Source of the DNA: Candidatus Stahliibacteriota bacterium
Lineage (GTDB): Bacteria > Hydrothermota > UBA3072
Assembly (NCBI GenBank): GCA_004377355.1
Contig: SOIB01000007.1
Span: forward strand, 1 to 31,055
Direction: 5' to 3'
DNA: 31,055 bases
Made by a program: the position numbers and the translations under genes. Shown here piece after piece: positions 1,004 to 22,920 of this stretch (position 1 is the stretch's first letter; each line of letters begins with the position of its first letter). The notes below the pieces were generated by a model, which was not told the origin of the DNA, made no database searches, and saw nothing but the letters and a program-made list of their open reading frames with translations.

Positions 1004-1919
1004 ACTCCGTAATCTCTCTTTCTAGTCTCCTTATTTTCTCGGCTAGTGAAGTTATTGCCTCTGTTATAAAACCTACAGTAAATAATACCAACCCTGAAAC
1101 AACTAAAAGTATAACTAGGTATAGGATTGGTCGGTATCCATGTAGAAACACAAATCGTTGAATAATCCCATATACACCTGTAATGAAACCCAGTATGATA
1201 AGCACTATCCCTATTGTACCGAAGAATAGTAGGGGTTTTTTTAGAAGGGAAATCTGCATCTTTACAGACAGAAGATCCATCACCCCTATCACTACCCTAC
1301 CTTTCCCTCTATATTTAGACTCTCCATATAAACGGGAGCGTAATTTTACCTTTACTTCAGAAATGGTAAAACCTTTATTCACAGCAAGGGCAACAATATA
1401 ACGGTGCCAATCTTTTCGAAAATCTATTTCTTCCAGGACCTTACTTTTAACCGCCTTGATAGCATTCTGGTCATGAATAGTAATATGAAATAGGTGTCGA
1501 GAAATCCAATTATAAACAGCTGATACAAATACCTTCTGGTAATGTCCATGCTTCCATCCAGTTACTATATCAAAACCTTTTTCCATTTCACCCAGTAGTG
1601 AGGGAATGTCATGTGCATCAAATTGGAGGTCTGCATCCATTAGTACTAATATCGGAGAATCAGAATGTCGGAAACCTGTAAGTATTGCCTCAGTTTTACC
1701 AAGATTCATTCGATGTCGGATAACTCTTAAGTATCTGTATTTTCGCGCCAAGTTGATAGCATCTTCATAAGTTCCATCAGTACTACCGTCATCCACCAGG
1801 ATAACCTCATAATTTCTCCTATCCCCATTAATCATATCCTGTATCTCTTCCATAAGTGGAGATATATTTTCTTTCTCATTATAAGCGGGGATAACTATTG
1901 TAACCTTTTCCTGAGCCAT
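966..1919 (-). CDS. Family-2 glycosyltransferase, Dpm1-like polyprenyl-phosphate glycosyltransferase with two C-terminal TM helices
   Basis: N-terminal GT-A signature IVIPAYNEKENI...VILVDDGSTDGT and a DAD-type motif (MDADLQ). Hydrophobic C-terminal segments. Overlaps the ftsY start by 38 nt on the same strand, suggesting co-transcription. Confidence 0.75.
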   Translation of the reverse strand: MAQEKVTIVIPAYNEKENISPLMEEIQDMINGDRRNYEVILVDDGSTDGTYEDAINLARKYRYLRVIRHRMNLGKTEAILTGFRHSDSPILVLMDADLQFDAHDIPSLLGEMEKGFDIVTGWKHGHYQKVFVSAVYNWISRHLFHITIHDQNAIKAVKSKVLEEIDFRKDWHRYIVALAVNKGFTISEVKVKLRSRLYGESKYRGKGRVVIGVMDLLSVKMQISLLKKPLLFFGTIGIVLIILGFITGVYGIIQRFVFLHGYRPILYLVILLVVSGLVLFTVGFITEAITSLAEKIRRLEREITEYGSSRGSEEGKK

Positions 1920-2026
1920 TATATGACCTTATCTAATCTTTTAAGTAATACTATTATTTTAAGTACACACAAAGATTTCACTATTAGCATTTGATCACTT
2001 TCTTGTATAATAATTCAGAAATGGAT

Positions 2027-3154
2027 TCATTGAGGAACCAATTTTAAAAACCTCTTTTTCCCGAGTCGTAGTATTACTTCATTCTTAATGGATATATTTA
2101 ATGAAAAATCGTTAATTTTTTCACCATCGATTCGAAGAGCCCCTTGTTCGATCAATCTTCTTGCTTCTCCTCTGGACTTAACCAGACCAGCATTATCAAG
2201 CACTTCAACTATCCAGATCTCCTTATCTTTTTTTATAAAAAATTCTTCTATATCCCTAGGTGCCTCTTCTCTGGAAAATACCCTTATAAATTCTGCTCTC
2301 TCCCTTTTTGCACTCCTATCAGAATGATATTGCCTCACGATTCCTTCGGCAAGCTCAAGTTTCAAATCCATAGGGTTTTCTCCGCTTTTCAATCTCTTCT
2401 TAACATTTTTTAAGAGTTCATCATAATAATCCAGACAGAGTTCATAGTAGCGAAGTATTAATTTATCAGGAATCGACATCACCTTTCCAAACTGCTCCCT
2501 GGATGACTCTTCGATACCAATAAAATTATTAAAGGATTTACTCATTTTCTTCACACCATCTAACCCTTCAAGTAACGGCATTAGAAAGACTACCTGCGGG
2601 TCCAGTCCAAAACTCCTCTGAAGGTCTCTACCTAAAAGATGGTTCCATCTCTGATCTGTTCCACCTAATTCTACATCGGCCTTGACAGCAACTGAATCAT
2701 ATGCCTGAAACATTGGGTACAATAATTCATGCAGAGCAATTGGATTCTCGGCTTTAAATCTTTCATTAAAATCATCCCTTTCTAAGAGTCTTGCAACTGT
2801 AATCTGTGAGGTAAGTCTTATGATATCAGATGGATCAAGTTTTGAGAGCCATTCTGAATTATATCGGAGTTCCGTCTTTCCTTTATCTAAGATCTTAAAT
2901 ATCTGTCTCGTGTATCCCTTCATATTCTCTCTTATTTGTTCTTCACTAAGCGATACTCTTGTCTTCGATCTACCTGAAGGGTCTCCAATCCTTGCTGTAA
3001 AATCACCAACGATAAGAACAGCTATATGTCCTACATCCTGAAATTGCCTGAGTTTTCTTAAGACTACAGCAAAACCAAGATGGATTTCAGGGGCTGTCGG
3101 GTCAATACCCAGTTTTACTCTTAGAGGGCGCTCTTCCTTTAGTTTTTCCTTCAA
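2027..3154 (-). CDS. tyrS: Tyrosine--tRNA ligase
   Basis: Class-I aaRS HIGH motif (PTAPEIHLGF) and KMSKS motif (KMSKS present). C-terminal S4-like RNA-binding segment (RRLIEQGALRIDGEKI). The track start is TTG, so the true start is uncertain. Confidence 0.8.
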   Translation of the reverse strand: MKEKLKEERPLRVKLGIDPTAPEIHLGFAVVLRKLRQFQDVGHIAVLIVGDFTARIGDPSGRSKTRVSLSEEQIRENMKGYTRQIFKILDKGKTELRYNSEWLSKLDPSDIIRLTSQITVARLLERDDFNERFKAENPIALHELLYPMFQAYDSVAVKADVELGGTDQRWNHLLGRDLQRSFGLDPQVVFLMPLLEGLDGVKKMSKSFNNFIGIEESSREQFGKVMSIPDKLILRYYELCLDYYDELLKNVKKRLKSGENPMDLKLELAEGIVRQYHSDRSAKRERAEFIRVFSREEAPRDIEEFFIKKDKEIWIVEVLDNAGLVKSRGEARRLIEQGALRIDGEKINDFSLNISIKNEVILRLGKKRFLKLVPQ

Positions 3155-3210
3155 TTCTTCTTCAGGAATGACTGATTCTGCTCCGATTATTAATCTTGCT
3201 AAATCTGAAT

Positions 3211-4125
3211 CTATTTTTGCCCTCCCGTTGGGATATTAAGAAGTGGAGTGAGTTTCTGATCAAAGGGAGTAATTATTACAGTATTATTGGGTGAATTAAC
3301 GAGTTGTTGTAGAGTCTTAATATAATACCACTGCAGATAACTGCTTGAAAGGGATTTTGATATAATACGGTTCGCTGCTGATATTCCCTCTGCTTCAAGC
3401 TTTTTCCGCTCCACTTCTCTGCTCTCTTTCTGCAGGATAAACACCATCCTTTCTGCTTCCTGTTTTGATGCCATCTTCTCATCTATTTTTTCTTGAACCA
3501 TTTCCGGCAATTGAACATTCCTCATTAAGACCTTCTCTACTTCAATATTCCTTCCGGTAAGAGCCCTTTTTAAACCCTGCTCGATGGAAATACCTATTTC
3601 CTCTCTTCTCTCTGTATATATGTCAGCTACTTCATAACCAGCGATCATATTCCTGATAACGGTTTTTATAGCAGGTCGGACAATCTTTTCCACATAATTA
3701 GGTCCAATATCACGATAAACTAGTGCTGCTCCTTCGGACTTAAGACGATACCACACTGTCACATCTAGTTTAACCGTGAGACCCTCTGATGTAAGCGCCG
3801 AAATGGCATCGTCTCCTCGAATAATCCCTTCCCTGGCTTTACCACTCATTGTATAACTTTCTGTTCGAACACTCATCTTTTCAATTGAAGCAAAAGGATT
3901 AATCAGGTGGATTCCACTCATCAGAGTTTTCTCCTTGACCCTACCGAAGAGAACAACAACTCCAACTTGCCCGGGACCTACGAGACGAACCATGGAAGCA
4001 ATCAGAAAGATAAAGGACAGAAATAAAATGCCAACGGGGGCTAGCCTGGTTCGTCTCTTAATCTCTGGGGTAAGCCACATCATTATTCCAATTATCAGGG
4101 TTACAATAAATAAAAATATTAACAT
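3211..4125 (-). CDS. SPFH/band-7 (prohibitin/HflC-like) membrane protein
   Basis: N-terminal TM helix followed by a band-7 core (VGPGQVGVVVLFGRV... pattern) and a C-terminal coiled-coil region. Confidence 0.7.
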   Translation of the reverse strand: MLIFLFIVTLIIGIMMWLTPEIKRRTRLAPVGILFLSFIFLIASMVRLVGPGQVGVVVLFGRVKEKTLMSGIHLINPFASIEKMSVRTESYTMSGKAREGIIRGDDAISALTSEGLTVKLDVTVWYRLKSEGAALVYRDIGPNYVEKIVRPAIKTVIRNMIAGYEVADIYTERREEIGISIEQGLKRALTGRNIEVEKVLMRNVQLPEMVQEKIDEKMASKQEAERMVFILQKESREVERKKLEAEGISAANRIISKSLSSSYLQWYYIKTLQQLVNSPNNTVIITPFDQKLTPLLNIPTGGQK

Positions 4126-4142: not shown

Positions 4143-4218
4143 AGGTAGCGGCGCAGGGACTCGAACCCCGGACACGTGGATTATGATTCCACTGCTCTAA
4201 CCAACTGAGCTACGCCGC
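4143..4218 (-). tRNA. tRNA with anticodon CAT. Met elongator, or Ile2 if lysidinylated; not distinguishable by eye.
   Basis: The minus strand reads GGCGGCG-TA-GCTC-AGTTGGTTA-GAGC-A-GTGGA-ATCATAA-TCCAC-GTGTC-CGGGG-TTCGAGT-CCCTG-CGCCGCT-ACC. Clean cloverleaf, GTTCGAGTC T-loop, 7-nt anticodon loop with CAT at positions 34-36. CC is encoded but the terminal A is not. Confidence 0.85.
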
Positions 4219-4228
4219 CATTGTTAAG

Positions 4229-6719: not shown

Positions 6720-8042
6720 ATGCAATCAATAATTCTATTTTTAACCGCAACGCTATCTGTTTTACTCCCCGAAGGAGTAGATATAAATGAGGAAATAATT
6801 AGAAGGAAAGAGGTTACTCTTCCTTATGGTGTTTTACCATTATATAACGAAGAAAATGGTATCACCTTATCTCTATATTCTATAATAGATACTGTTAAAT
6901 ACATTCAATTTAGTCCTATTGTGCAATATCAAAAAAATAGGTGGGGTTTCACTGTTGCCCCACTTGGACGCAAAGGAGACGCACATATTTATCCAACTCG
7001 AGAGGAATTTGGAGCCTATGCTGACATTTTACGTGGCTCTATATTTTATAGGACCAACAATTTAATAATATCTTTCGGGAAGGATATCTTCTTAATAGGA
7101 AGTTCCTTTGAACATAACCCTCTCCTATCTCCCAATATTCCCTTAAATTATGCACGATTTATTTATACCAATGATAAATTTTCATTTACGCACTTCTTAG
7201 CAAGGCTTGATGACTATACCGGACGAGAGAAGATATGGGCAGGTGGTTCTACAGCTGATACTGCTACTTTCCAGCGATATTTAGGTATACATCGCCTCGA
7301 ATTTAAACCAAGGAAGTGGTTTGCAATTTCTTTCAGTGAAGTAATGCTAATTGGTGGAGAATATTCAGGTTTTCCCTTCGAGCTACTATCCCCTGTTACC
7401 ATCTATTATATAGAACAATTCAATCAGAAAAAAAATGTAAACATACTATGGAATATTGACTCGAAAGCAGTATGGAAAGATTTCCTCTTCTATTTTGACC
7501 TATTTATAGATGACTTTCAGCTTGAGGCGGATCCCTGGAATGAGCCAAATCATATGGGAATATATTTTGGCATACAGAGGATTGACCTTTTTAAAGAAGG
7601 GTCATTACTATTACTCTCATACAACATTATGAGTAGATGGTCTTATAGTAACATTATTGTATGGCAGAGGTATATTGATAAAGATTTCTCATTGGGGACA
7701 CCTCTCGGGAATGATTATGATCGGTTCTATATGCAGGCACTCTATCCAATATCTTCTTTTAAAACCGGATTTGAATTCTCTTTCACGCGTAAAGGAGAGA
7801 ATTCAATTAATAATCCATGGCCAGTTAATACTGATTCCATTGCTACACCAGCGAATCAATTTAACAACACAAATTTCCTATCTGGAACAATTGAAAAAAG
7901 ATTGAGTATTTCCTCCATCCTTAAGTATAGAGACTTATTCACACTAAAAGTTGGATTATATCACATTCAGAATTACCAACATCAAGAGGGCACCACTAAA
8001 ACAGAACCACTACTTGAGCTTAAAATTAAATACCATATATAG
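6720..8042 (+). CDS. Hypothetical secreted, aromatic-rich protein. It is possibly an outer-membrane beta-barrel or a capsule/exopolysaccharide-assembly (Wzi-like) protein.
   Basis: N-terminal signal-peptide-like segment (MQSIILFLTATLSVLL). High Y/W/F content with alternating hydrophobic patterns. No catalytic motif recognised. Confidence 0.35.
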   Translation: MQSIILFLTATLSVLLPEGVDINEEIIRRKEVTLPYGVLPLYNEENGITLSLYSIIDTVKYIQFSPIVQYQKNRWGFTVAPLGRKGDAHIYPTREEFGAYADILRGSIFYRTNNLIISFGKDIFLIGSSFEHNPLLSPNIPLNYARFIYTNDKFSFTHFLARLDDYTGREKIWAGGSTADTATFQRYLGIHRLEFKPRKWFAISFSEVMLIGGEYSGFPFELLSPVTIYYIEQFNQKKNVNILWNIDSKAVWKDFLFYFDLFIDDFQLEADPWNEPNHMGIYFGIQRIDLFKEGSLLLLSYNIMSRWSYSNIIVWQRYIDKDFSLGTPLGNDYDRFYMQALYPISSFKTGFEFSFTRKGENSINNPWPVNTDSIATPANQFNNTNFLSGTIEKRLSISSILKYRDLFTLKVGLYHIQNYQHQEGTTKTEPLLELKIKYHI

Positions 8043-8126: not shown

Positions 8127-9098
8127 TCACCGGATTAACAATTTTTCACAAAGAAACTTATCCATAGGTTCAACTGTTATTATATTAAAATCTGGTAATT
8201 GGACCTTGACTGATCCATTCCCTGCGTATCTTGCAAGGATTCTTGCAGCAAGAATTAAATCATCTTCTTCTGAAATTTCAACCTGTCCATTAAAACCTTC
8301 AAAACACATAAAGAGCTTGCCAGAAGGACCTTTTACATCAAGAAGTTCAAAAAGAGCAGATCCATACTTCCTTAGTATCTCTCCCTCCCTTTGGTTTCTA
8401 CTTACTATAAATATAGACTCATTCAAACGGAAATGGCGTCCAATTAACATAAGATTTATAAGTGATTCATCAATACCACATTCTTTTATTGCTATATATA
8501 GACGCTTAGAAATAACTTCACTGGTTAAAAGACAACCACCTCCGGGGGAACCATATTCGGTTATACCAAATTTTCTTGTCAATTCTATTTGAACCTCTCT
8601 ACTCCTACCTGAAACACCATAGAGTTTATCTCGGTCTATAATATCCACTCTTTCAGGCCATGTAGGCTTTAGTAACTTTGCTGAAAGAGGTCTGAGTGTA
8701 ATATCACCAAGTTCTGTTAATTTATCTACATTATTGAGATTTTCTTTTGTCTGAGATTTTGGTCTTTGTCCAAGAACCTCCCCTGTAATAAGAAAACCCC
8801 CCCCTATCTCATTCATATAACTGTACGCTTCTTTTATCATTAAAGCATGACAATCAACACAGGGGTTAATCCCCTTTCCATATCCATATTGTGGATGGAG
8901 TAAAATTTCAAAATGTTTGTGGGAGATATCTATAGTTATGAAATCTAAATTATTTGCTGTAGCATTTTTACGAGCCTTTTCATCATCAAAGAAATGACTT
9001 ATAAATGAAACAGGAATTACATCAATACCTTGGGACTCTACTATCCTGACAGATAGTAACGAATCCAGTCCTCCCGAAAAGAGAGCTACTGCTTTCAT
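8127..9098 (-). CDS. PP-loop ATP pyrophosphatase, a LarE/ThiI/MnmA-like sulfurtransferase or adenylyltransferase
   Basis: N-terminal SGGLDS PP-loop (AVALFSGGLDS). NPCVDCH segment resembling the MnmA NPC..C motif. C-terminal GGGCLLTS resembling the LarE/ThiI catalytic Cys region. Confidence 0.55.
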   Translation of the reverse strand: MKAVALFSGGLDSLLSVRIVESQGIDVIPVSFISHFFDDEKARKNATANNLDFITIDISHKHFEILLHPQYGYGKGINPCVDCHALMIKEAYSYMNEIGGGFLITGEVLGQRPKSQTKENLNNVDKLTELGDITLRPLSAKLLKPTWPERVDIIDRDKLYGVSGRSREVQIELTRKFGITEYGSPGGGCLLTSEVISKRLYIAIKECGIDESLINLMLIGRHFRLNESIFIVSRNQREGEILRKYGSALFELLDVKGPSGKLFMCFEGFNGQVEISEEDDLILAARILARYAGNGSVKVQLPDFNIITVEPMDKFLCEKLLIR

Positions 9099-9730
9099 TC
9101 TGATAGGACATCAATCACTATTCTACGGTTTCTATCTCTCCCCTCTGCAGTTGCATTAGGCGTAATTGGGTGATACTCTCCATAGGCAATAGCTGCAAGA
9201 CGTTTAGGGTCAATACCTACTTCGGAAATCAGATATTTAACAACATTGATGGCTCTCTTTGCTGATAAATCCCAGTTTGTGGGATATTCTTTCCTGAGGC
9301 TACCAGCGATTTGTGTATTATCAGTATGTCCTTCTATGATAATCTTTCTATCTTCAATCTCTTTTATTATACTGGCAATCTTAAACAACATCTCCTTGCC
9401 ATCTTTACTCAGTTCAACACTACCTGGAGGAAATAGCTTTTTCCCGGGAAGAGTAATAGAAATTTCTTCTCTAACCTGTTCCACTTCTATACCATCAATC
9501 ATATCCCTTAAATCCTCTGCAACATAATTCTCGGTTGGTAGTTCTACACTTATGGAATCTTCCCTGGGTGCATCTCTCCGTAACTCATTTACAACTGATA
9601 TTAAAGTTCTGTTTTCTTCTTTATATTCAAGGAGTTCTGATTTTAATGGATAATAATCTTTGATATAGAAATATCCAAAACCTACTAACAATAATGAGAT
9701 AATTACAATATAAGCTATGTCTCTTCTCAT
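9095..9730 (-). CDS. OmpA/MotB-domain membrane protein (peptidoglycan-binding)
   Basis: N-terminal TM helix. C-terminal OmpA_C signature (NWDLSAKRAINVVKYL...GRDRNRRIVIDV). 4-nt overlap with the downstream PP-loop gene. Confidence 0.7.
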   Translation of the reverse strand: MRRDIAYIVIISLLLVGFGYFYIKDYYPLKSELLEYKEENRTLISVVNELRRDAPREDSISVELPTENYVAEDLRDMIDGIEVEQVREEISITLPGKKLFPPGSVELSKDGKEMLFKIASIIKEIEDRKIIIEGHTDNTQIAGSLRKEYPTNWDLSAKRAINVVKYLISEVGIDPKRLAAIAYGEYHPITPNATAEGRDRNRRIVIDVLSE

Positions 9731-9738
9731 CCTTCCTC

Positions 9739-11793
9739 CTAAAAGTCAAACTTGTCAATCATCTCGATGGTTCTATTTTCAGGTTCAAGTGCTTTCCCAT
9801 GAAGAGTGCATTTCCTTTTAGGTGCATCTTCTTGAACAAATATCTCCCTTCTAACGTTAGAGCACTCCGGAGTTGCTAGTTCTCCACTCTCAGCACATAC
9901 ATACCTGTAAACAATACCTTCTGGTTCCTGGAACTGAAAATCTTCATATTCTTTTGCTGAGTCAATCAATGCTTCCATAAATCTAGTCCAAATAGGCAAG
10001 GCAACTCCTGCCCCTGAAGCATGATTCCCAATTCTCTTTGGGTAATCATATCCAACCCATACACCAACAGTAACTTCTGGAGTAAAACCAATAAACCACC
10101 CATCAGTAAAGTTGTCTGTAGTCCCCGTTTTACCTGCAGCAGGTAGTTTGAAACCCATAAGTCGTGCACTGTAGGCTGTCCCTTCGTTAAATACACTCTG
10201 TAACATATTAACCATTATATAAGCTGTTTGCTCAGAAAGGACTCTCTCCTTCACAATTCTATTCTCATACACAACATTCCCGTATCTATCCTCTACCTTT
10301 AGTATAAATATTGGTTCGACCTTTTCACCCAGATTTGCCAGTGTAGTATAGCCTCTTACCATTTCAAGTAGTGTCACACTAGATGTTCCTAATGGTATAG
10401 AAAGAACTGGATCAAGATAACTACCTATACCCATTAAATGAGCATAATCAACAACTGTGAAAGGTCCAACTTCCTGACCAAGTCTTATTGATGCACCGTT
10501 ACGGGATTTACTCAATGCTGTTCTCAATGTAATCTTACCCATAAATGTACTATCATAATTTCCAGGTGCATATGGTTCTCCTTGAATTTCTTTAATTACT
10601 GGAAGGTCGAATACAAAATCTGAAGGTGCGAACCCATTATCAATAGCTGCTGTATAGAGAAAAGGTTTAAAAGCGGAACCCGCCTGTCTTTTTGCCTGGG
10701 TTGCTCTGTTATACATACTGCACCTAAAATCTCTTCCTCCAACAAGACTCAATATATATCCTGTTGTGGGCTCTAGAACTACCATAGCACCTTGTATATA
10801 GGGAATATTCTCTGGATAAATTAAAGAATCAGGTATGGAATCCTTAGGGGTAAGATGCCAATATTTCTCAACCCTATCAAGTCCCCATTCCATAAGACTA
10901 TCAGCTAGTATCTGCATTCCTTTATCCATTGCAACATATACCTTATACCCACCCCACATCCTATAAGCACTTCCAAATAAAGAGTTCATTTGTTTCTTTA
11001 CTTCATATATATAATATGGACCAATTGAATTCCTACTATGATTATCCACTACAAATAAGGACTCGGAAATTGCAAAATCTAATTGTTCTTTACCGATATA
11101 ACCTTCGGATTTTAATTCTCTAAGGACAAAGTTTCTCCTTCTCACAAACCTTTCGTAATTGTTATATGGAGAATACCGTCCAGGCGATGCAAAGAGTCCT
11201 ATTAATGCAGCCGCTTCTGAAAGGGAAAGAGAATCCGGTGTCTTATCAAAATAATATTCGGATGCAGCTCCAACACCATAATTACCATATCCAATATATA
11301 CCTCGTTTATATACATCTCAAGTATCTTATCCTTTGGATAATAACGCTCTAATAAGAGAGCAAGGTATATCTCCTTCAATTTCCGAACCATAGTCTTTTT
11401 TAGATGTAGGAAAATACTTCTTGAAAGCTGTTGGGTAATGGTACTTGCTCCCTGAACATAACTACGCCTTACTATATTTAGCCATGCAACTTTTAGTATT
11501 CTTCGTAGATTTATTCCCCTGTGATTATAAAATTCTTTATCTTCGACTGCAATAGCTGCATTAGCTATATAATCTGGTATTAAATCAAGTTTTACTGGAA
11601 TACGTCGTTGCTGATATACTTCATCAATTAGATCCCCATTTCTATCATATATTCTAGTTGTAAGAAGTGGCTCATAATACTCTACACTCTCTATATCTGG
11701 TATTTCACTAATTATCCATAGATTCACTCCAAGAAGGGAACCAAGAATAAAAAAGATTATAGATAAGATTATAAAATTCTTAATCATAAGCAA
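9739..11793 (-). CDS. Class A penicillin-binding protein (bifunctional glycosyltransferase/transpeptidase, PBP1A-like)
   Basis: N-terminal TM. GT51 motifs (EDKEFYNHRGIN, GASTITQQL). Transpeptidase SxxK (SAFKPF), SxN-type and KTGT motifs. Confidence 0.85.
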   Translation of the reverse strand: MLMIKNFIILSIIFFILGSLLGVNLWIISEIPDIESVEYYEPLLTTRIYDRNGDLIDEVYQQRRIPVKLDLIPDYIANAAIAVEDKEFYNHRGINLRRILKVAWLNIVRRSYVQGASTITQQLSRSIFLHLKKTMVRKLKEIYLALLLERYYPKDKILEMYINEVYIGYGNYGVGAASEYYFDKTPDSLSLSEAAALIGLFASPGRYSPYNNYERFVRRRNFVLRELKSEGYIGKEQLDFAISESLFVVDNHSRNSIGPYYIYEVKKQMNSLFGSAYRMWGGYKVYVAMDKGMQILADSLMEWGLDRVEKYWHLTPKDSIPDSLIYPENIPYIQGAMVVLEPTTGYILSLVGGRDFRCSMYNRATQAKRQAGSAFKPFLYTAAIDNGFAPSDFVFDLPVIKEIQGEPYAPGNYDSTFMGKITLRTALSKSRNGASIRLGQEVGPFTVVDYAHLMGIGSYLDPVLSIPLGTSSVTLLEMVRGYTTLANLGEKVEPIFILKVEDRYGNVVYENRIVKERVLSEQTAYIMVNMLQSVFNEGTAYSARLMGFKLPAAGKTGTTDNFTDGWFIGFTPEVTVGVWVGYDYPKRIGNHASGAGVALPIWTRFMEALIDSAKEYEDFQFQEPEGIVYRYVCAESGELATPECSNVRREIFVQEDAPKRKCTLHGKALEPENRTIEMIDKFDF

Positions 11794-14281: not shown

Positions 14282-15472
14282 ATGGCTCTTGAATATATGT
14301 GGAAGGATGTATTCCAAGGAGTAAGGTTAGGATTTTCTCCCAAGAAAATCTGGGTGGCAGCTAAAGGGCTTCTTATGGGAACAATAGGTTATTCTATCCT
14401 TGCTTACCTTTCATTGATGGCTTCTGGCTGGAATATCCAAAAAATATGGCTGGAATTCAGGTATATCCCGTTTCCATTCTTCCAGGGAAACCTTACATGG
14501 TTTGGATGGATTATATGGGCTATTGCTGGTCTCTGGGTACTATACTTCTACTTCATAACTATGACAGCAATCTCTAAGATAACATATGAGCAATTAAGAG
14601 GAGACGAATTTTACGAGTCTAAAGAAGCCTGGACTTTTGCTCATAAAAACTGGAAGGGAACCTTCCTTTCTCCCATATATCTTATCTTCTTTATTGCCGC
14701 CCTAATATTAACAGGATTGATATTAGGCCTTGTCGGAAGGATACCAACTGTAGGACAAATCCTTATCGGATTATCTGCAGTTCCGATATTCGCCGGGGCA
14801 TTATTTGTTGTATATTTAACAATTGTTGTTGGTGTTATACTAATCAGTGCTCCAGCTATTGTAGCAACTACAGAGAGTGATACCTTTGATACACTCTTTG
14901 AGGGATTCTCACTGATAAACGATCAAACCTGGAGATATATTCTCTGGGAAGTTATCCTTTTGATCACGACTTTTATTGGGATAATTATATTCGCCTGGCT
15001 ATTTAAGTATGCACTATCTTTAACACACAATACACTAATAGTGTGGGCTGGCCCAAGAAACTGGTGGAATATAATGTGGCATAATGCAAACTGGTATTTA
15101 CATATCCCTTGGCTTCCAATCTGGATTGCAAAATGGTATCCAACATTCTTCGTACCCACAGAGTTTATATCTGCCGGCTCAGAAACCCTTGCTCAATATC
15201 CTGGGGCTGCTACAACCTTTGGTGGATTCCTTTTGGGACTTTCCTTCTATATGGTAATATTCATAATCATCGGATACGGAATATCAACTCATGCTGCTGG
15301 TCAAACTTTAATTTACACAATTCTCGTCAAGATAAAAGATGAAAAGGACTTACTGGTGAAAGAAGAGAAATTATTTGAAGCTGAAATCGAGGAGAAAGAA
15401 GAAGAGGTAGAGGTAGGAAAAAAAGAGAAGAAACAAAGAAGAAAAGAAGAAAACAAAGAAGTAAAGCAATAG
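14282..15472 (+). CDS. Hypothetical polytopic membrane protein (about 8-10 TM helices, W/Y-rich loops) with a highly charged K/E-rich low-complexity C-terminal tail
   Basis: Multiple long hydrophobic segments. Tail is KDEKDLLVKEEKLFEAEIEEKEEEVEVGKKEKKQRRKEENKEVKQ. Strong SD (AGGAGG) 4 nt upstream. Confidence 0.5.
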   Translation: MALEYMWKDVFQGVRLGFSPKKIWVAAKGLLMGTIGYSILAYLSLMASGWNIQKIWLEFRYIPFPFFQGNLTWFGWIIWAIAGLWVLYFYFITMTAISKITYEQLRGDEFYESKEAWTFAHKNWKGTFLSPIYLIFFIAALILTGLILGLVGRIPTVGQILIGLSAVPIFAGALFVVYLTIVVGVILISAPAIVATTESDTFDTLFEGFSLINDQTWRYILWEVILLITTFIGIIIFAWLFKYALSLTHNTLIVWAGPRNWWNIMWHNANWYLHIPWLPIWIAKWYPTFFVPTEFISAGSETLAQYPGAATTFGGFLLGLSFYMVIFIIIGYGISTHAAGQTLIYTILVKIKDEKDLLVKEEKLFEAEIEEKEEEVEVGKKEKKQRRKEENKEVKQ

Positions 15473-15502
15473 ATAAAAATAAAAGATCTCTAACTGAAAA
15501 TA

Positions 15503-15534
15503 AAAACGCCCTTTCTTGTGAAAGGGCGTTTTTA
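15503..15534 (+). terminator. Rho-independent terminator: AAAAACGCCCTTTC-TTGT-GAAAGGGCGTTTTT
   Basis: Perfect 10-bp GC-containing stem, 4-nt loop, T-tract. It is flanked by an A-tract, so it may work bidirectionally. Confidence 0.85.
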
Positions 15535-15608
15535 TAAAATGAAACGGCGTCAATAAAACCTTGACTATTAAACAATCTTTTATAGATTAGTAAAAAAGGG
15601 AGGTTTTA

Positions 15609-17645
15609 ATTAAAAGTATTATATTCTTTTTCATAATATTATTTCTTTTAATATTTAATTGTGATAGAGGAGAAAAATTCACGTATGAAGGAAATATAGG
15701 GGGAACTTTAATTGTTTCCCTTATGAATGAACCCACCACACTTAACCCTCTTTATCCATCATTTTCTGGTCTTTCCCCTGTTTCAGAAAAAATATTTAAT
15801 CCATTACATGATCAGAAACCAGATGGTAAAGTAAGAACTTGTTTAGCTCAATCATGGGTATATTCAGAGGATCTAAAATCTATTACATATACAATACGAA
15901 AAGATGCAAGTTGGCATGATGGCACACCAGTAACCGCAAAAGACATTGTATTCACTTTTAAACAGATTAAGGACCCCAAGAATAACTCACCAGTCTCTCA
16001 AAGATTGCGATATATTAAAAACGTAAAAGCAATTGGAGAAAGAGAAGTTAGGTTTGTATTTGATAAAGTATATGCAGATGAATTAATCCATTCAAACATA
16101 CTAATCATCCCAAAACATATTGTAGAGAAGGATAAAAATAATCTCCAAATGAGTAACTTCAGTTTCAGCCCAACCGGGAATGGTCCTTACAAGCTTAATG
16201 AATGGAGACAGGGAGAATGGATCGAGTTAGTTGCAAACAATGATTATTTCAGAGGACGACCTCTACTTGATAGAATAGTTTTCTATTTCCCACACTCTTT
16301 GGAAGAACTATTGGATGAAATCAATTTAGGAAATATAGACATAGCATTTGATCTACCTCCAGAGAAATATGACACTATAAAAGGATACAGTACCATAGTA
16401 TCTTCAGGTAGAGCTTATACGTATATTGGCTGGAATCTCAAGCGATTTCAAGATAGAAATTTAAGAAAAGCCTTCAGCATGGCTATTGATCGTGAAGGTA
16501 TTATATCTTCTATACTTAAAGGTTATGGACGTTTATTAAATTGTCCAATAACACATGAGCATTGGGCATTTAACCCTGACATAAAGGGGATCAAACACAA
16601 CGAACAAAAAGCAAAAGAGTTATTAGAAGAACTAGGATATTCAAAGAAAAGCTGGCAACAATACTATCCGGATCTCCGAGTAGAAATTCTGGTAGAAAGT
16701 GGAAATCCCATTCGCAAGGAAGTAGCTTTTTATATTATGTCTGATTTGCGTTCAATAGGGGTTAATACGCTCGTTACGGAACTTAGAGGGTCACAATTGA
16801 TTGATCGTTTATTCAATCGCAATTTTGATGCATATATTCTTGGATGGAGTGTGGACAAAGCCTTTAACCCTCTTCTAATCTGGAGTCCTAACGGTATATA
16901 TAATTTTGTTGGTTATAAAAATAAGAAAGCTCACGATTTAATGAGAAAAGCGCTGTTTTCTCTTGATAGAAAAAAGGCCAAAAAAGCGTGGCATGAATTC
17001 CAGGAAATTATTGCAAAAGATCTTCCTTACACCTTCCTCTATACACCACAGAAGATAACTCTGGTCAAGGAGAATGTAGCAGGAATGAAGCATGAGGATA
17101 AAAGACCAATTTTATCATACCTTGACGAACTGTACTTTAAGAAAGTCCCATCAACTACATTAAATCTTGCATCCCTTGGAACACACTATAAAGAAACACA
17201 AATAGGAAGTGAACAAAGAAAAGCAGAGATAACTACACCACAACAAACACTAACACCTACTGAAGAAATACTGGAAGCAGTAACCTCCACTACTACAATT
17301 GAAGAAGAGAGATCAACAGAAACACCAACTGAAGAAGTAACTACACCTATAGTGGAAAAGAAGGGACCAATTATTCCCCCAATAATAATCTATTATCCTC
17401 CTAAAAGAGATTATCCTGAAAATGCAAGAAAACTTGATGTTCGAGGACAGGTCTTTATAAAAGTTTACATCTCAAAAGAAGGTATAGTTGATAAAGCAGA
17501 TATTGTAAAAGGACTTTTCCCTTCTTGCGATTCAGCAGCTTTATCGGATGCGTATAAATGTAGATTTGATCCTGCAACTCAGGATGGAGAACCTGTAGCG
17601 GATTCACAGACCCTTCCTTTCCGTTTCCCGCCCGGAGGGTGGTAG
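15609..17645 (+). CDS. Family-5 (OppA/DppA-like) ABC substrate-binding lipoprotein fused through a T/E/P-rich linker to a C-terminal TonB_C domain. The true N-terminus likely lies upstream of the track ATG at 15723, starting at a non-canonical ATT at 15609.
   Basis: SBP_bac_5 core throughout. The in-frame upstream sequence encodes a lipoprotein-type signal peptide plus the hallmark GGTLIVSLMNEPTTLNPL motif, and has no ATG/GTG/TTG. An ATT lies 6 nt after a perfect GGGAGG SD (15597-15602). The C-terminus is PIIPPIIIYYPP plus YPENARKLDVRGQVFIKVYISKEGIVDKADIVKG...PFRFP, a TonB_C pattern. Confidence 0.6.
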   Translation: MKSIIFFFIILFLLIFNCDRGEKFTYEGNIGGTLIVSLMNEPTTLNPLYPSFSGLSPVSEKIFNPLHDQKPDGKVRTCLAQSWVYSEDLKSITYTIRKDASWHDGTPVTAKDIVFTFKQIKDPKNNSPVSQRLRYIKNVKAIGEREVRFVFDKVYADELIHSNILIIPKHIVEKDKNNLQMSNFSFSPTGNGPYKLNEWRQGEWIELVANNDYFRGRPLLDRIVFYFPHSLEELLDEINLGNIDIAFDLPPEKYDTIKGYSTIVSSGRAYTYIGWNLKRFQDRNLRKAFSMAIDREGIISSILKGYGRLLNCPITHEHWAFNPDIKGIKHNEQKAKELLEELGYSKKSWQQYYPDLRVEILVESGNPIRKEVAFYIMSDLRSIGVNTLVTELRGSQLIDRLFNRNFDAYILGWSVDKAFNPLLIWSPNGIYNFVGYKNKKAHDLMRKALFSLDRKKAKKAWHEFQEIIAKDLPYTFLYTPQKITLVKENVAGMKHEDKRPILSYLDELYFKKVPSTTLNLASLGTHYKETQIGSEQRKAEITTPQQTLTPTEEILEAVTSTTTIEEERSTETPTEEVTTPIVEKKGPIIPPIIIYYPPKRDYPENARKLDVRGQVFIKVYISKEGIVDKADIVKGLFPSCDSAALSDAYKCRFDPATQDGEPVADSQTLPFRFPPGGW

Positions 17646-17651
17646 TCTTTA

Positions 17652-18215
17652 ATGAATGTAAAATTTATAGAAAAACGAACTATGATGGGTGAGGAAGAAA
17701 TGCACTGGGCATTAAGACGTATATCCCATCAGGTGATAGAAGACAACCCACGACTTAAAAAAATTTGTATAATTGGAATTCGAAAAAGAGGAGATATATT
17801 AGCCAAACGAATTGCAGAAATACTTAGTGAGCTGACTTCCTGGGATGTAAATATTGGTGTCCTCGATATAACCCTTTACAGAGACGACCTCACAACCTAT
17901 GGACCTAAACCATTAATTGGTCCTACATATTTCCCATGTCCAATAGATGAATTGCCTGTTTTACTTGTAGACGATGTAATACATACAGGTAGAACAATCA
18001 GAGCTGCCCTCGATGAAATTATGGATTATGGTCGTCCTTCTGCAGTAAAACTTGCAGTGATGGTAAACAGGAGCGGAAGAGAACTGCCTATAATGCCCGA
18101 TTATTTTGGAACTTCTATAGATCTCACAGAAGGCGAAGAAGTTCGAGTTAACATTTTGGAAACGGACGGGCAAGACTCTGTAAAAATAGTAGAGGTAAAA
18201 ATTGATAATGAATAG
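17652..18215 (+). CDS. pyrR: PyrR, bifunctional pyrimidine operon regulator / uracil phosphoribosyltransferase
   Basis: Type-I PRTase PRPP motif VLLVDDVIHTGRT. Size and overall pattern match PyrR. Starts 6 nt after the upstream gene. Confidence 0.8.
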   Translation: MNVKFIEKRTMMGEEEMHWALRRISHQVIEDNPRLKKICIIGIRKRGDILAKRIAEILSELTSWDVNIGVLDITLYRDDLTTYGPKPLIGPTYFPCPIDELPVLLVDDVIHTGRTIRAALDEIMDYGRPSAVKLAVMVNRSGRELPIMPDYFGTSIDLTEGEEVRVNILETDGQDSVKIVEVKIDNE

Positions 18216-19143: not shown

Positions 19144-20419
19144 AGGTGCTCACCTTCTTGATCCAAAGAATAACGTAGACGAAATTGGTAATATTTATAT
19201 TGAAAATGGTATAGTTATAGGTAAATCATCACGTAAGACGCAAGATGTGAAAATAGATGCCAGTGGTCTATATCTAATACCTGGATTAGTAGATATTCAC
19301 TCACATTTTCGTGAGCCAGGCAAAGAAGACGCTGAAACAATAGAAAGTGGATCTCGTGCCGCTCTTAAAGGAGGGTATACAACGGTTTGTGTAATGCCAA
19401 ATACAGAGCCACCGATTGATAATGAAGGAGTAGCAAGATTCATAAAGGAAAAAGCAATAGAGAATAAAAAATGTCGAATTTTTCCAGTTGGAACTATAAC
19501 TAAAGGAAGAGAAGGTAGGGAACTATCAGAGATGGGACATCTCTATGAAGCTGGTTGTGTGGCTTTCAGCGATGATGGTAACTGTGTAATGAACCCTGCA
19601 GTGCTACGAAGAGCTCTGGAATATTCCCTTTTCTTAGAAGTCCCTATTATAGAGCATCCTGAAGATATGTTATTATCCAAAAATGGTCAAATAAATGAAG
19701 GTATAATATCAACAAAACTCGGATTAAAAGGTATACCTGATATATCTGAAGCATCTATAGTAGCAAGAGATATACTTCTTTCCAAATTTACAGAGGGGAG
19801 ACTTCATCTTGCTCATATTTCATCAGAGGAGTCTGTAAGTATAATAAAATATGGAAAGAGTAAGAGTATTAGGGTTACGGCAGAAGTTACACCACATCAT
19901 CTTCTCTTAACTGAAGAAGAAGTTTTAAGTTTTGACACCAATAAAAAGATGAAACCACCACTTAGAACTAAATCAGATAGAGATGCCCTGCAGAAAGCGT
20001 TGAAAGAAGGAATTATTGATTCAGTAGCTACAGACCATGCTCCACATCCTGATTATGAAAAAGAACTCGAGTACTCTCTTGCTCCTTTTGGCGTAATTGG
20101 TTTGGAAACTGCATTTAGTGCATTATACACCAAACTTATCCTTCCCGGCACCTTAAGTTTTAAGCAATTAATTCTATGTATGACAGATAAACCTGCACAG
20201 ATACTCGCTCTTCCGGTTGGCGAGATAAAAAAAGGAGGAACTGCAGATTTTACCCTTCTTGACCTTGGGAGCGAATGGGAGGTTGACCCAGATAATTTTG
20301 AATCAAAATCAAAAAATTCTCCTTTCATTGGATGGAAACTAAAAGGAGTCATAAAAGCAACTATAGTTAATGGCTTTCTACCTTATAGAGAAGGTGAATT
20401 CCTGAGGGAGGAAAAGTGA
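19127..20419 (+). CDS. pyrC: Dihydroorotase (class I, about 430 aa)
   Basis: Metal-binding DIHSHFREPG and DHAPH motifs. Overlaps pyrB by 17 nt. Confidence 0.8.
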   Translation: MKIAIKGAHLLDPKNNVDEIGNIYIENGIVIGKSSRKTQDVKIDASGLYLIPGLVDIHSHFREPGKEDAETIESGSRAALKGGYTTVCVMPNTEPPIDNEGVARFIKEKAIENKKCRIFPVGTITKGREGRELSEMGHLYEAGCVAFSDDGNCVMNPAVLRRALEYSLFLEVPIIEHPEDMLLSKNGQINEGIISTKLGLKGIPDISEASIVARDILLSKFTEGRLHLAHISSEESVSIIKYGKSKSIRVTAEVTPHHLLLTEEEVLSFDTNKKMKPPLRTKSDRDALQKALKEGIIDSVATDHAPHPDYEKELEYSLAPFGVIGLETAFSALYTKLILPGTLSFKQLILCMTDKPAQILALPVGEIKKGGTADFTLLDLGSEWEVDPDNFESKSKNSPFIGWKLKGVIKATIVNGFLPYREGEFLREEK

Positions 20420-22920
20420 CTGCTTCGTTTGATATCTTCGATTTAGAAACAGCTGCAGTCATGGGAAGTAAATTTCTCTTCTCCTTAAAGGAAGGAGCCG
20501 GTGAGAGTGAACTCTACGAAACATCAAAACAGACACTATCTCGTTATTTTGAACTCAGAGGCTTAGATACAAAGAAATTGGACTTCTTCTTAGAACACAA
20601 ATGTAAGTTTATTATGGAACTAAATAAAGAAGAAAGAGCTTACCTCCGTGATATGTTTACTCGTCTTGAAGAAAATAAAATAAATAAAGAAGACATCAAA
20701 TTTTTTAATAGCCTAACTGAAAATATCTTAGAAAAGGGTTCTCACTATTTTCCTCTACTATTATCTTTAATAATGAAAATTTTTCCATCTGAATTGGTAA
20801 GTGGGGTAAAGAAATCCTTCGAAGTAGGGAAAAGATTAAGCGGATTGCTAAATGATATTTTAAAAAGTAAAGAATTGGATAATTTCACCATTTTGTTTTT
20901 AAAAGAACCTCTTCCAATTGGAATTCCACTCACAAACACCTCATTAGATGACTTCAAAAAATTTCTTACTCCTTATGGTTTTACTCCCGACCTATTAAAA
21001 CAAATTCATAATATTTTAAGAGCTAATTTTACCCAAAGAGAGAGTGGAGATATAATTTCTCTTCTTAAGAACACAGATATATCGGGTTTGGATGATTTAC
21101 GTAACTTTAACTTTTATAGCTTTTTCATACCAGAAGATGATACCTTAGTAAGAATTGCAAAAATAGTATCTGATAAAGCATCCAAAGTGAAGCAAAGATT
21201 AATGCAGAAAGATATGGAACTTGATATGAAAGATGTAAAAGTCCGAGAAGAAACCCACCAACTCCTTCGGAAAAATGTAGAAAAATTACAATCACTAATA
21301 GATGTGAAAAAGGGTAATCTTCAAGAGATTTTGAGTAATACTCAGGAACAATTTACTGCGCTTGAAAAAGCGATAAAACTACATATAAGACATATCCAGG
21401 CGCATGAACATGCTTCTAAATCGCTAAAAAAAGCCATCGATGAGAATAAGATACTACTCAGCATAAATCTAGAAGATATAAAGAATTTCTTTCCCACTCC
21501 TCCCCTCTGGGAAATAGAAAGACTAATAAAGGAATTCTGGCATGAATTACCATACCTCGAAATTATTGATCCTGCATGTGAAAGAAAAATAATTAAGCTT
21601 CTAAAAAAAGAAGAACGGTTATCCTCTGATAAAAAATTATTTTTACAGCTCGCACATACGGAGAGAAGAGGATTCTCTCCTGATATCGAAAGAGTAATCT
21701 TAAATTATAGAAAGGTCTTAGAAGAAATCTTTGAACCTTTATACATCCGTGAAGTAATAAATCGTATGATTGAAATCTGGCCTCCTAACGTTGATTTTGG
21801 AAATCCTAAATCAATAATTGTTACAACTAGAAAACTCCATCTTGCAGGTCTGGATTTACTACCAAAAGGACACTTTTACAGATTCGGAATTAAAGGTAAT
21901 ATAGAGCCCACTATTGATAGAAAGCTGTTAGAAAAAAGAGAACAAATATCAACCTTTCTAAGAAAAGGATTCTCAACCCTTGTTTCAGTTTTAATATATG
22001 ATATTCGTGGCTCGAGTTTTATGGCACATCGCCTTCGGAATGCTAAGAAGGAAAGGTCTATTCGTAATAAATTCCAATCTACTATGCTTGACACAGCCAC
22101 AAGGGGTTCGTCGTTTATACTCAAAGATACAGGTGATGGAGGAATCTTGTGGTTTGGTGGCAATTCTAACAAACTCTACAGGAATATCTATAAGTGTCGG
22201 GAGAGTGAATCAGGGGCAATCTTACGTTCTTCAACTGCTTTTGAAGATGAATTCATACTAACGCCACACCCAAAGAGCGCAGAGATGGCTATTAATGCAG
22301 CATTAAATTTAGTGCAAACGGCCGAGGATTTCGTCACAGAAAATTATATGAACTACAGAGATTGGTTTGAAGAAATAACAGAGAAAGAAGTCTTTCACGA
22401 TGGCATTACCTACGCGTTACTACCTCCTAAATTCAAATCGTTATTCAGGCTTGGTATAGGGATAGCAAGTGGACAACCTGGAAAAGACATTATATTCTCC
22501 CCTAATGCATTTGGGGATCCCGATCTTACGGGAAATATTGTGGACGAATCCGCTCTATTTTCATCCGGGAGGAGTCCTGAACGTTCTGTAATTCTAATAG
22601 ACCATTGTACACTAATAAATCTACTACTCAACTCAGATCAATATCTATTGATTCTTCCCCTAACTAAGGAAGACTCTGACGAGGTAGTTATTGATAAACT
22701 CCTTACCATTCTTAAAAGAGAAGAATCTGAACAGGAATTCATATTCGATGATTTTACTGTATCACCTGTGGGTCTCTATTATATTGACTATAAAGATAAG
22801 GAAAAGAGTATAGAGTTCAAACTTTGGAAGAATTTAAAATTGGAATTCAATGATAAAGGGGACTTATCTAGCAAAAGGGGTCGTGTAAAAATACTCTATG
22901 AAGTCTTAGTTAAGGAATAG
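20416..22920 (+). CDS. Large hypothetical protein (834 aa). It has a ~500-aa alpha-helical N-terminal region of unknown function plus a divergent class-III nucleotidyl-cyclase (CHD/palm) domain around aa 520-715.
   Basis: The C-terminal region matches cyclase hallmarks. LVSVLIYDIRGSSFMA matches vtvlFaDIvGFTal with the metal Asp. ILKDTGDGGILWFG matches iKtiGDaymavfG with the second Asp. AEMAINAALNL and FRLGIGIASGQPG...GNIVDESALFSSG match rvGIhtG...GdtVNlAsRl, but the canonical Arg is missing. GTG start overlaps the pyrC stop (GTGA). Confidence 0.45.
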   Translation: MTASFDIFDLETAAVMGSKFLFSLKEGAGESELYETSKQTLSRYFELRGLDTKKLDFFLEHKCKFIMELNKEERAYLRDMFTRLEENKINKEDIKFFNSLTENILEKGSHYFPLLLSLIMKIFPSELVSGVKKSFEVGKRLSGLLNDILKSKELDNFTILFLKEPLPIGIPLTNTSLDDFKKFLTPYGFTPDLLKQIHNILRANFTQRESGDIISLLKNTDISGLDDLRNFNFYSFFIPEDDTLVRIAKIVSDKASKVKQRLMQKDMELDMKDVKVREETHQLLRKNVEKLQSLIDVKKGNLQEILSNTQEQFTALEKAIKLHIRHIQAHEHASKSLKKAIDENKILLSINLEDIKNFFPTPPLWEIERLIKEFWHELPYLEIIDPACERKIIKLLKKEERLSSDKKLFLQLAHTERRGFSPDIERVILNYRKVLEEIFEPLYIREVINRMIEIWPPNVDFGNPKSIIVTTRKLHLAGLDLLPKGHFYRFGIKGNIEPTIDRKLLEKREQISTFLRKGFSTLVSVLIYDIRGSSFMAHRLRNAKKERSIRNKFQSTMLDTATRGSSFILKDTGDGGILWFGGNSNKLYRNIYKCRESESGAILRSSTAFEDEFILTPHPKSAEMAINAALNLVQTAEDFVTENYMNYRDWFEEITEKEVFHDGITYALLPPKFKSLFRLGIGIASGQPGKDIIFSPNAFGDPDLTGNIVDESALFSSGRSPERSVILIDHCTLINLLLNSDQYLLILPLTKEDSDEVVIDKLLTILKREESEQEFIFDDFTVSPVGLYYIDYKDKEKSIEFKLWKNLKLEFNDKGDLSSKRGRVKILYEVLVKE

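Follow-up and report, generated by a model that had tools for sequence, protein, structure and literature searches.

How the cargo released by a TonB-dependent transporter (TBDT) reaches its periplasmic binding protein is an old and unsettled question, and the only hints so far are in-vitro contacts of TonB with FhuD and BtuF in Escherichia coli. For both proteins a direct interaction with TonB has been described (Carter 2006; James 2009, as cited in PMC3813593). The physical link between TonB and the binding protein was proposed to bring the latter near the outer-membrane transporter, the contact being noncovalent, transient, and debated. Here we describe a protein of the diderm bacterial lineage WOR-3 (PMC12285271) in which the corresponding parts form one polypeptide with a motor-less TonB moiety, and for which the E. 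coli reports may serve as a precedent. It is encoded by a single uninterrupted open reading frame (ORF), at positions 15609-17645 (+), on a 31,055-nt stretch of DNA from Candidatus Stahliibacteriota bacterium (contig SOIB01000007.1 of assembly GCA_004377355.1), which was analyzed as a whole and is called the window below. The product is predicted to be a periplasmic lipoprotein of three modules, an AppA/OppA-like peptide-binding domain, a flexible spacer, and a genuine TonB C-terminal domain (CTD); we refer to it as the fusion.

The N-terminal module is a complete family-5 solute-binding protein (SBP) domain, as an earlier note made from the DNA letters had stated. It matched the Pfam family SBP_bac_5 with an E value of 4.3e-76 (256.9 bits), and AlphaFold2, run with an 84-sequence alignment (mean predicted local distance difference test score [pLDDT], 86.5), modeled aa ~29-536 as a confident two-lobed fold with pLDDT values mostly >90. 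The closest solved relative was the oligopeptide binder AppA of Bacillus subtilis (PDB 1XOC; phmmer E = 1e-64, Foldseek E = 8e-48), followed by the nickel binders NikZ and CcNikZ-II (E ~1e-45) and then by CtaP. Target-normalized Foldseek TM-scores to AppA, NikZ, and CtaP were 0.78 to 0.87, and the murein-tripeptide binder MppA was also among the structural relatives. With the AppA/OppA family-5 lipoproteins the window protein shares the full SBP_bac_5 fold, a lipoprotein signal, and a “DKR/PKR” segment, but it differs from them by the C-terminal addition of 150 residues of spacer and TonB domain.

The earlier note had called the binding domain “peptide or nickel type,” and nickel was also raised by the NikZ-type proteins (Campylobacter jejuni NikZ, PDB 4OET/4OEU; CcNikZ-II, 8EFZ), which are the second-closest solved relatives, and by one fusion clade in which the gene adjoins nikR and larC/larB/larE-like genes. 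The nickel ligands of C. jejuni NikZ are His26 of the v-loop and an “HH-prong” of His480 and His481 (bioRxiv 10.1101/2022.10.03.510666). Neither the window protein nor the fusion family has these ligands: in the window protein, S/G stands at the v-loop position and DKR in place of the HH-prong, a segment that the family shares and that resembles the PKR of AppA. Nickel binding was therefore rejected as unlikely for the window protein. Because the NikZ ligands are missing and an AppA-like DKR segment stands in place of the prong, a peptide-like ligand, suggested by the similarity to AppA, would be more likely than nickel.

The start of the gene bears directly on how the protein is anchored. Read from its first ATG, the ORF runs from 15723 to 17645 (+) and encodes 640 aa, including exact copies of the proline motif PIIPPIIIYYPP and of the TonB signature YPENARKLDVRGQVFIKVYISKEGIVDKADIVKG...LPFRFP that had been quoted from it. 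The same frame extends upstream to a stop codon at 15591-15593, and reading from there adds KREVLIKSIIFFFIILFLLIFNCDRGEKFTYEGNIGGTLIVSL. This upstream frame encodes a lipoprotein signal peptide whose cysteine, Cys18, is invariant across 84 aligned fusion proteins, nearly all of which have a lipobox-like -3 to -1 region; the label “lipoprotein” was thus right. An ATT codon at 15609 sits 5 nt past the sequence GGGAGG, and in the alignment of 84 homologues the Met of all relatives falls exactly there (GGAGGTTTTAATT in the window, GGAGGTTTTAATG in relatives). The same ATT is present in an independent Joint Genome Institute (JGI) assembly of a near-identical strain (locus L092). Because of the invariant Cys, the position of the relatives' Met, and the recurrence of the ATT, the true start appears to be this noncanonical codon, giving a product of ~678 aa. 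The public 640-aa call, which begins at ATG 15723, is N-terminally truncated and lacks the signal peptide.

The closest described counterparts of the C-terminal module are the TonB proteins of E. coli and Pseudomonas aeruginosa (PDB 2GSK and 6I97), with which it shares a TonB_C domain bearing the YP motif, the same topology, and an E/P/K-rich spacer in front. The assignment to TonB_C held up in domain searches. The Pfam match (PF03544; E = 2e-12) scored 47.8 bits against a cutoff of 24.6, above both curated cutoffs, and the NCBIfam model TIGR01352 (tonB_Cterm) scored 33.7 bits against a cutoff of 27.1; Pfam placed the domain in TonB_C and not in the TolA-type family TonB_2. A sequence search of the PDB with the CTD returned only TonB chains, with the YP motif aligned. 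Both this motif (Y602, P603) and the terminal edge β-strand (aa 665-673) are conserved in the family, and AlphaFold predicted a strand-helix-strand-strand-helix-strand order for aa 590-678 at pLDDT values of 72 to 92. Distantly related fusions, with 25 to 35% identity in the SBP domain, share 41.6% identity in the CTD; by sequence identity, the CTD is at least as conserved and constrained as the SBP domain.

What the fusion shares with TonB at its C terminus it lacks at its N terminus. There is no N-terminal transmembrane helix for contact with ExbB/ExbD; a lipoprotein signal is found instead, the SBP domain follows directly, and the protein has no other hydrophobic helix. TonB also carries a D-box beside its membrane anchor, a strand motif in which hydrophobic and polar residues alternate and which binds ExbD (PMC10907165). 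Inspection revealed no D-box-like motif in the fusion, and the sole conserved spacer motif, PTEEILEAVT, is predicted to be helical and does not alternate. Since it has no TonB membrane helix, the fusion is not an energy-transducing TonB, and since it has neither the ExbB/ExbD helix nor a recognizable D-box and is anchored by a lipid on a 500-residue binding domain, coupling to the proton motive force is not expected. The contrary explanation, that the protein is a true, ExbBD-coupled TonB variant held in the membrane by an uncleaved hydrophobic segment at its N terminus, would suit its public name “TonB family protein” and the combination of a hydrophobic N terminus, an E/P/K-rich spacer, and a TonB_C domain. 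We regard it as highly improbable, given the signal peptide with its invariant Cys and nearly universal lipobox-like region, the globular domain between anchor and spacer, the lack of a conserved alternating hydrophobic motif, and the fact that fusion genomes also encode ordinary TonB proteins. The name is misleading.

Between the two domains lies the T/E/P-rich low-complexity linker that the earlier note had described, with 24% T, 21% E, and 10% P over aa 528-590. Across the family, spacer lengths range from 68 to 102 aa, and the composition is rich in E, P, T, A, and K (E, 16%; P, 14.5%). AlphaFold gave pLDDT values of <50 at aa 538-547 and 561-587; the spacer is thus predicted to be disordered, with no polyproline rod, apart from a short predicted helix at aa 551-559, over the motif PTEEILEAVT, with a pLDDT of ~70. 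In its E/P/K/T-rich composition the spacer may recall the periplasm-spanning region of TonB itself.

The fusion is real and widespread within its lineage. A search of ~5.8 billion proteins found both Pfam domains together in 93 clusters at 90% identity, 675 to 753 aa long and with identities down to 29%, whose sources are WOR-3, Stahlbacteria, TA06, and one Cloacimonadota. At the DNA level, relatives of the fusion gene were present in 326 stretches drawn from one genome per GTDB species; in the best 80 of these loci, together with those found earlier, our own hidden Markov models (HMMs) recognized 69 distinct full-length fusion loci, designated here by L numbers. The same architecture was therefore found in other genomes, all of them WOR-3/Stahlbacteria-type metagenome-assembled genomes. 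An artifact, in which two genes were joined by a frameshift or a misassembly, can be dismissed as vanishingly improbable, since the same continuous ORF recurs in all these clusters and loci from many independent projects and an independent assembly encodes the identical protein. Locus L075 is the opposite case: there, at 8409-10398, a frameshift separates an SBP ORF from an ORF for the spacer and CTD, either as a pseudogene or through a sequencing error, and it is the only such locus. The literature that we searched contained no account of an SBP-TonB fusion or of WOR-3 together with TonB; the fusion, built of known parts, is uncharacterized in that literature. Public annotation names the protein either “TonB family protein” or “peptide/nickel substrate-binding protein.”

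Links between the fusion and the Ton system are apparent at several loci. In eight species (L007, L008, L015-L019, and L022), a gene for a 200-aa canonical TonB, with a membrane helix at its N terminus, a PPPPVRP linker, and a TonB_C domain, lies directly upstream of the fusion gene (both genes at 6182-9334 in L007). The CTD of this TonB is 60 to 72% identical to the CTD of its own clade's fusion versus 26 to 31% (median) to all other fusion CTDs. Fusions with 55 to 70% identity in the SBP domain normally share 66.6 ± 6.4% identity in the CTD (n = 354 pairs), but where one member comes from the TonB-adjacent clade, CTD identity drops to 33.9 ± 2.5% (n = 40) over the same SBP range. From this drop, together with the likeness to the adjoining TonB, we conclude that the CTD was exchanged once between a canonical TonB and the fusion, at the base of the TonB-adjacent clade. 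The fusion of this clade stayed under selection after the exchange, which argues that TonB and fusion CTDs may serve the same kind of target and be interchangeable in recognition, at least in that clade.

A second tie is found in clade 2 (L006, L026-L028, and L089), in which a gene for a 650-aa BtuB-like TBDT is divergently adjacent to the fusion gene (1366-3327 [-] in L006) in all loci with a visible upstream region. This TBDT has a textbook Ton box, LPEIVVTAKR, at its N terminus, and among the NCBIfam models it matches the vitamin B12 receptor best, but far below the cutoff. No other TBDT was found in 1.13 Mb of fusion-gene flanks by a three-round jackhmmer search, which started from this TBDT as a single seed and may miss very divergent receptors. 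Finally, a cluster encoding ExbB (206 aa), ExbD (134 aa), and TonB/TolA (227 aa) lies ~7 kb from the fusion gene in L030; from this cluster we concluded that fusion genomes possess an ordinary Ton or Tol motor, to which the fusion is an addition and not a replacement. The CTD exchange, the adjacent TBDT, and the motor cluster lend indirect support to a link between the fusion and TonB-dependent transport, and the strong conservation of the CTD relative to the SBP domain likewise ties the fusion to the Ton system.

The relation to ABC transport is different. The unfused relatives of the binding domain, which occur in Planctomycetota and Acidobacteriota, stand in classical operons of the order SBP-OppB-OppC-OppD-OppF, as verified with Pfam. 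When the four Opp proteins of one unfused relative's operon were used as seeds, 12 OppB and 12 OppC homologues were detected, all in nonfusion loci. Few ABC ATPases were found near fusions, all without the oligo_HPY domain, and the window contains no Opp permease. The fusion is not a standard SBP of an ABC operon. The first cultured WOR-3 bacterium, strain sy37, used yeast extract as its sole growth substrate and was described as having “few” ABC transporters (PMC12285271).

We give about an even chance to the reading that the fusion is a motor-less, lipid-anchored tether, by which a peptide-binding module is brought to Ton boxes so that it can capture substrate; Ton-box binding, ligand class, and hand-off are the parts of it that we infer. 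The hand-off proposed in the earlier note is thus the leading hypothesis, with partial support. Lacking the TonB membrane helix, and hence any ExbBD coupling, the fusion would be unable to energize transport, and its CTD would act as a passive docking module whose edge β-strand, by the known mechanism of TonB, would pair with the Ton box exposed by loaded TBDTs. With its 70 to 100 residues, the spacer would be able to span a large part of the periplasm. The binding domain would then be concentrated beneath TBDTs, where it could capture oligopeptide-like cargo on its entry into the periplasm, and since the gene has no linked Opp permease, the cargo would go on either to a membrane protein of a non-ABC type or to a permease whose gene lies elsewhere. 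Such a tether would fit the scaffold idea drawn from the TonB-FhuD and TonB-BtuF reports, as these are cited in PMC3813593.

Several observations weigh against this reading. Whereas the nearest unfused relatives stand in oppABCDF-type operons, a seeded search of the flanks found no Opp-type permease, nor any other gene of the OppBCDF set, within ~10 kb of the fusion in any of the 69 loci. The context of the fusion gene is not conserved across most clades, and the window contains no TBDT, ExbB/ExbD, or canonical TonB gene. TonB_C is also a promiscuous, portable module, so its presence alone is no proof of Ton-box binding. In an exhaustive HMMER search with the window CTD, multirepeat TonB_C proteins dominated the matches, and the related proteins included tandem TonB_C arrays, M56 peptidase-TonB_C proteins, and FG-GAP-TonB_C proteins; the search found no close stand-alone TonB. 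These and other known fusions (BlaR1/M56-TonB_C, FG-GAP-TonB_C, the tandem arrays, and MxcH-type TBDTs with an N-terminal TonB_C) resemble ours in carrying the domain as a portable terminal module on a non-TonB protein, but none examined has a solute-binding domain, and their functions are poorly known. The main objection is that TonB domains without a motor compete with TonB for Ton boxes and that free fragments are dominant negative in E. coli, where over-produced periplasmic TonB fragments reportedly inhibit transport; because of this competition, simple docking could be counterproductive.

That same competition could be the function. The motor-less TonB domain might rival TonB for Ton boxes so as to throttle import, with the occupancy of the binding domain controlling the freedom of the CTD. 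Such a feedback gate would agree with the lack of motor-coupling elements and with the dominant-negative effect of free periplasmic TonB fragments, and the conserved helical spacer motif, with its E552 and L555, could mediate the intramolecular switch. It is, however, more elaborate than the data require, and a constitutive inhibitor conserved throughout a phylum would be unusual; we consider it distinctly improbable.

The variable gene contexts also bear on another explanation, in which the fusion is an anchor or scaffold of the envelope unrelated to TBDTs, a housekeeping factor of the WOR-3 cell envelope. Its CTD would use strand addition, in the manner of TolA with TolB, to bind peptidoglycan or another protein of the envelope, and its SBP-like domain would bind murein peptides or be a chaperone or structural module. 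This would account for a phylum-wide presence in variable, mostly housekeeping contexts: the region of the window that holds the fusion gene also holds genes for PBP1, an OmpA-family protein, and a Wzi-like protein, and in L011 an M23 peptidase gene ends 12 nt before the fusion gene. The missing ABC permease partner, the place of MppA among the structural relatives, and the occurrence of TonB_C in many non-TonB proteins point the same way. Against it, two findings single out the Ton system, namely the exchange of CTDs between the fusion and a canonical TonB and, in a different clade, the adjoining TBDT gene; in addition, by Pfam the domain is TonB_C and not the TolA-type TonB_2, and the nearest characterized SBP relative is a component of a peptide importer and not MppA. 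On balance we consider such an anchor unlikely, and the Ton-box tether remains the reading that we prefer.

The coordinates of the features of the fusion gene and its upstream region are collected in Table 1. The strong hairpin between the gene for a membrane protein and the fusion gene looks like a bidirectional intrinsic terminator.

Table 1. Features of the fusion gene and of the DNA upstream of it (window coordinates)
Feature	Position	Strand	Remarks
Polytopic membrane protein, 396 aa, no Pfam/NCBIfam family	14282..15472	+	Upstream of the fusion gene
Hairpin, G+C-rich, perfect 16-pair stem (6 GC pairs)	15500..15535		Flanked by A-runs/T-runs
Promoter-like site TTGACT-16-TAGATT	15561..15588	+	Consensus match only; CCTTGACTA core also 5' of relatives' fusion genes
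Shine-Dalgarno sequence GGGAGG and ATT start codon (15609-15611)	15598..15611	+	Relatives have GGAGGTTTTAATG there
Lipoprotein signal peptide IKSIIFFFIILFLLIFNC	15609..15662	+	Ends at lipobox Cys18 (codon 15660-15662)
Complete family-5 (OppA/AppA-type) solute-binding domain, aa 29-536	15693..17216	+	
Low-complexity Thr/Glu/Pro spacer, aa 537-589 (~55 residues)	17217..17375	+	
Conserved motif PTEEILEAVT within the spacer	17256..17285	+	E552 and L555 nearly invariant
TonB CTD, aa 590-678, and stop codon	17376..17645	+	

The membrane protein encoded upstream belongs to a family found only in WOR-3-type sources (322 hits). AlphaFold gave a confident model, whose fold is nearest to those of the choline transporter-like proteins PNS1/CTL1 and of CysZ (CTL/SLC44/CysZ-like). 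Its gene adjoins the fusion gene in 4 of 11 clades, in varying orientation, and in the genome that contains L019 and L093 the two genes lie on different contigs. It was rejected as an obligate partner of the fusion on these grounds and because of the terminator between the two genes; that it is a partner at all is possible, with weak support, and the tyrS/PRK synteny shared between loci suggests that the adjacency reflects an ancestral gene order. A bolder proposal, which we treat as a long shot, makes the fusion the periplasmic link of a WOR-3-specific, ABC-independent uptake route, in which the Ton box of a BtuB-like TBDT would dock the CTD and the binding domain would pass cargo to the ~400-residue CTL/SLC44/CysZ-like membrane protein.

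Downstream in the window (17643-18215), pyrR starts 6 nt past the fusion stop and is followed by overlapping pyrB and pyrC; in four clades pyrR stands at position +1 or +3 from the fusion, and cotranscription of the fusion with the pyrimidine genes is possible. An 834-aa ORF without a Pfam domain (20416-22920), between pyrC and a GAF-GGDEF gene, is kept at the same position (838 aa) in the 73%-identical relative L003. A tRNA-Met gene (CAT) at 4144-4219 (-) was the sole Rfam/ARAGORN match in the window.

In the TonB-adjacent clade, nikR (RHH_1 plus NikR_C) lies directly downstream of the fusion and is followed by larC/larB/larE-like genes (9503-12924 in L007; 7636-11104 in L008). A sharply conserved promoter block, CCCTTGACTAATTATATATTTTTCTTAATTTTA, lies 5' of the fusion gene within an unconserved spacer; it contains an AATTA-N11-TAATT inverted repeat that might be a NikR operator, with a possible link to a nickel regulon. 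Short tandem repeats resembling heptamers crowd the spacers that flank the TonB and fusion genes (6785-7255 and 9335-9500 in L007; similarly in L008, L016, L018, and L019). The repeats are followed by their own reverse complements, as in GTGTTAGTGGGTTGGTGTGTT...AACAGCCCAACCGACTAACC, forming long imperfect hairpins whose units differ between species.

Each of the two public annotations overlooks half of the fusion protein, and counts of TonB genes in WOR-3 genomes are inflated by a protein unable to transduce energy. The covalent joining of a binding protein to a TonB docking domain across a whole phylum is a natural “Rosetta stone” for a hand-off link between TBDTs and periplasmic binding proteins. 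It also offers a simple testable system, consisting of one CTD, one Ton-box peptide, and one binding domain, in a lineage that has a cultured isolate, strain sy37 (PMC12285271). If the ABC-independent route were true, it would represent a new class of binding protein-dependent secondary transporter and would provide direct genetic proof of hand-off from a TBDT to a binding protein.

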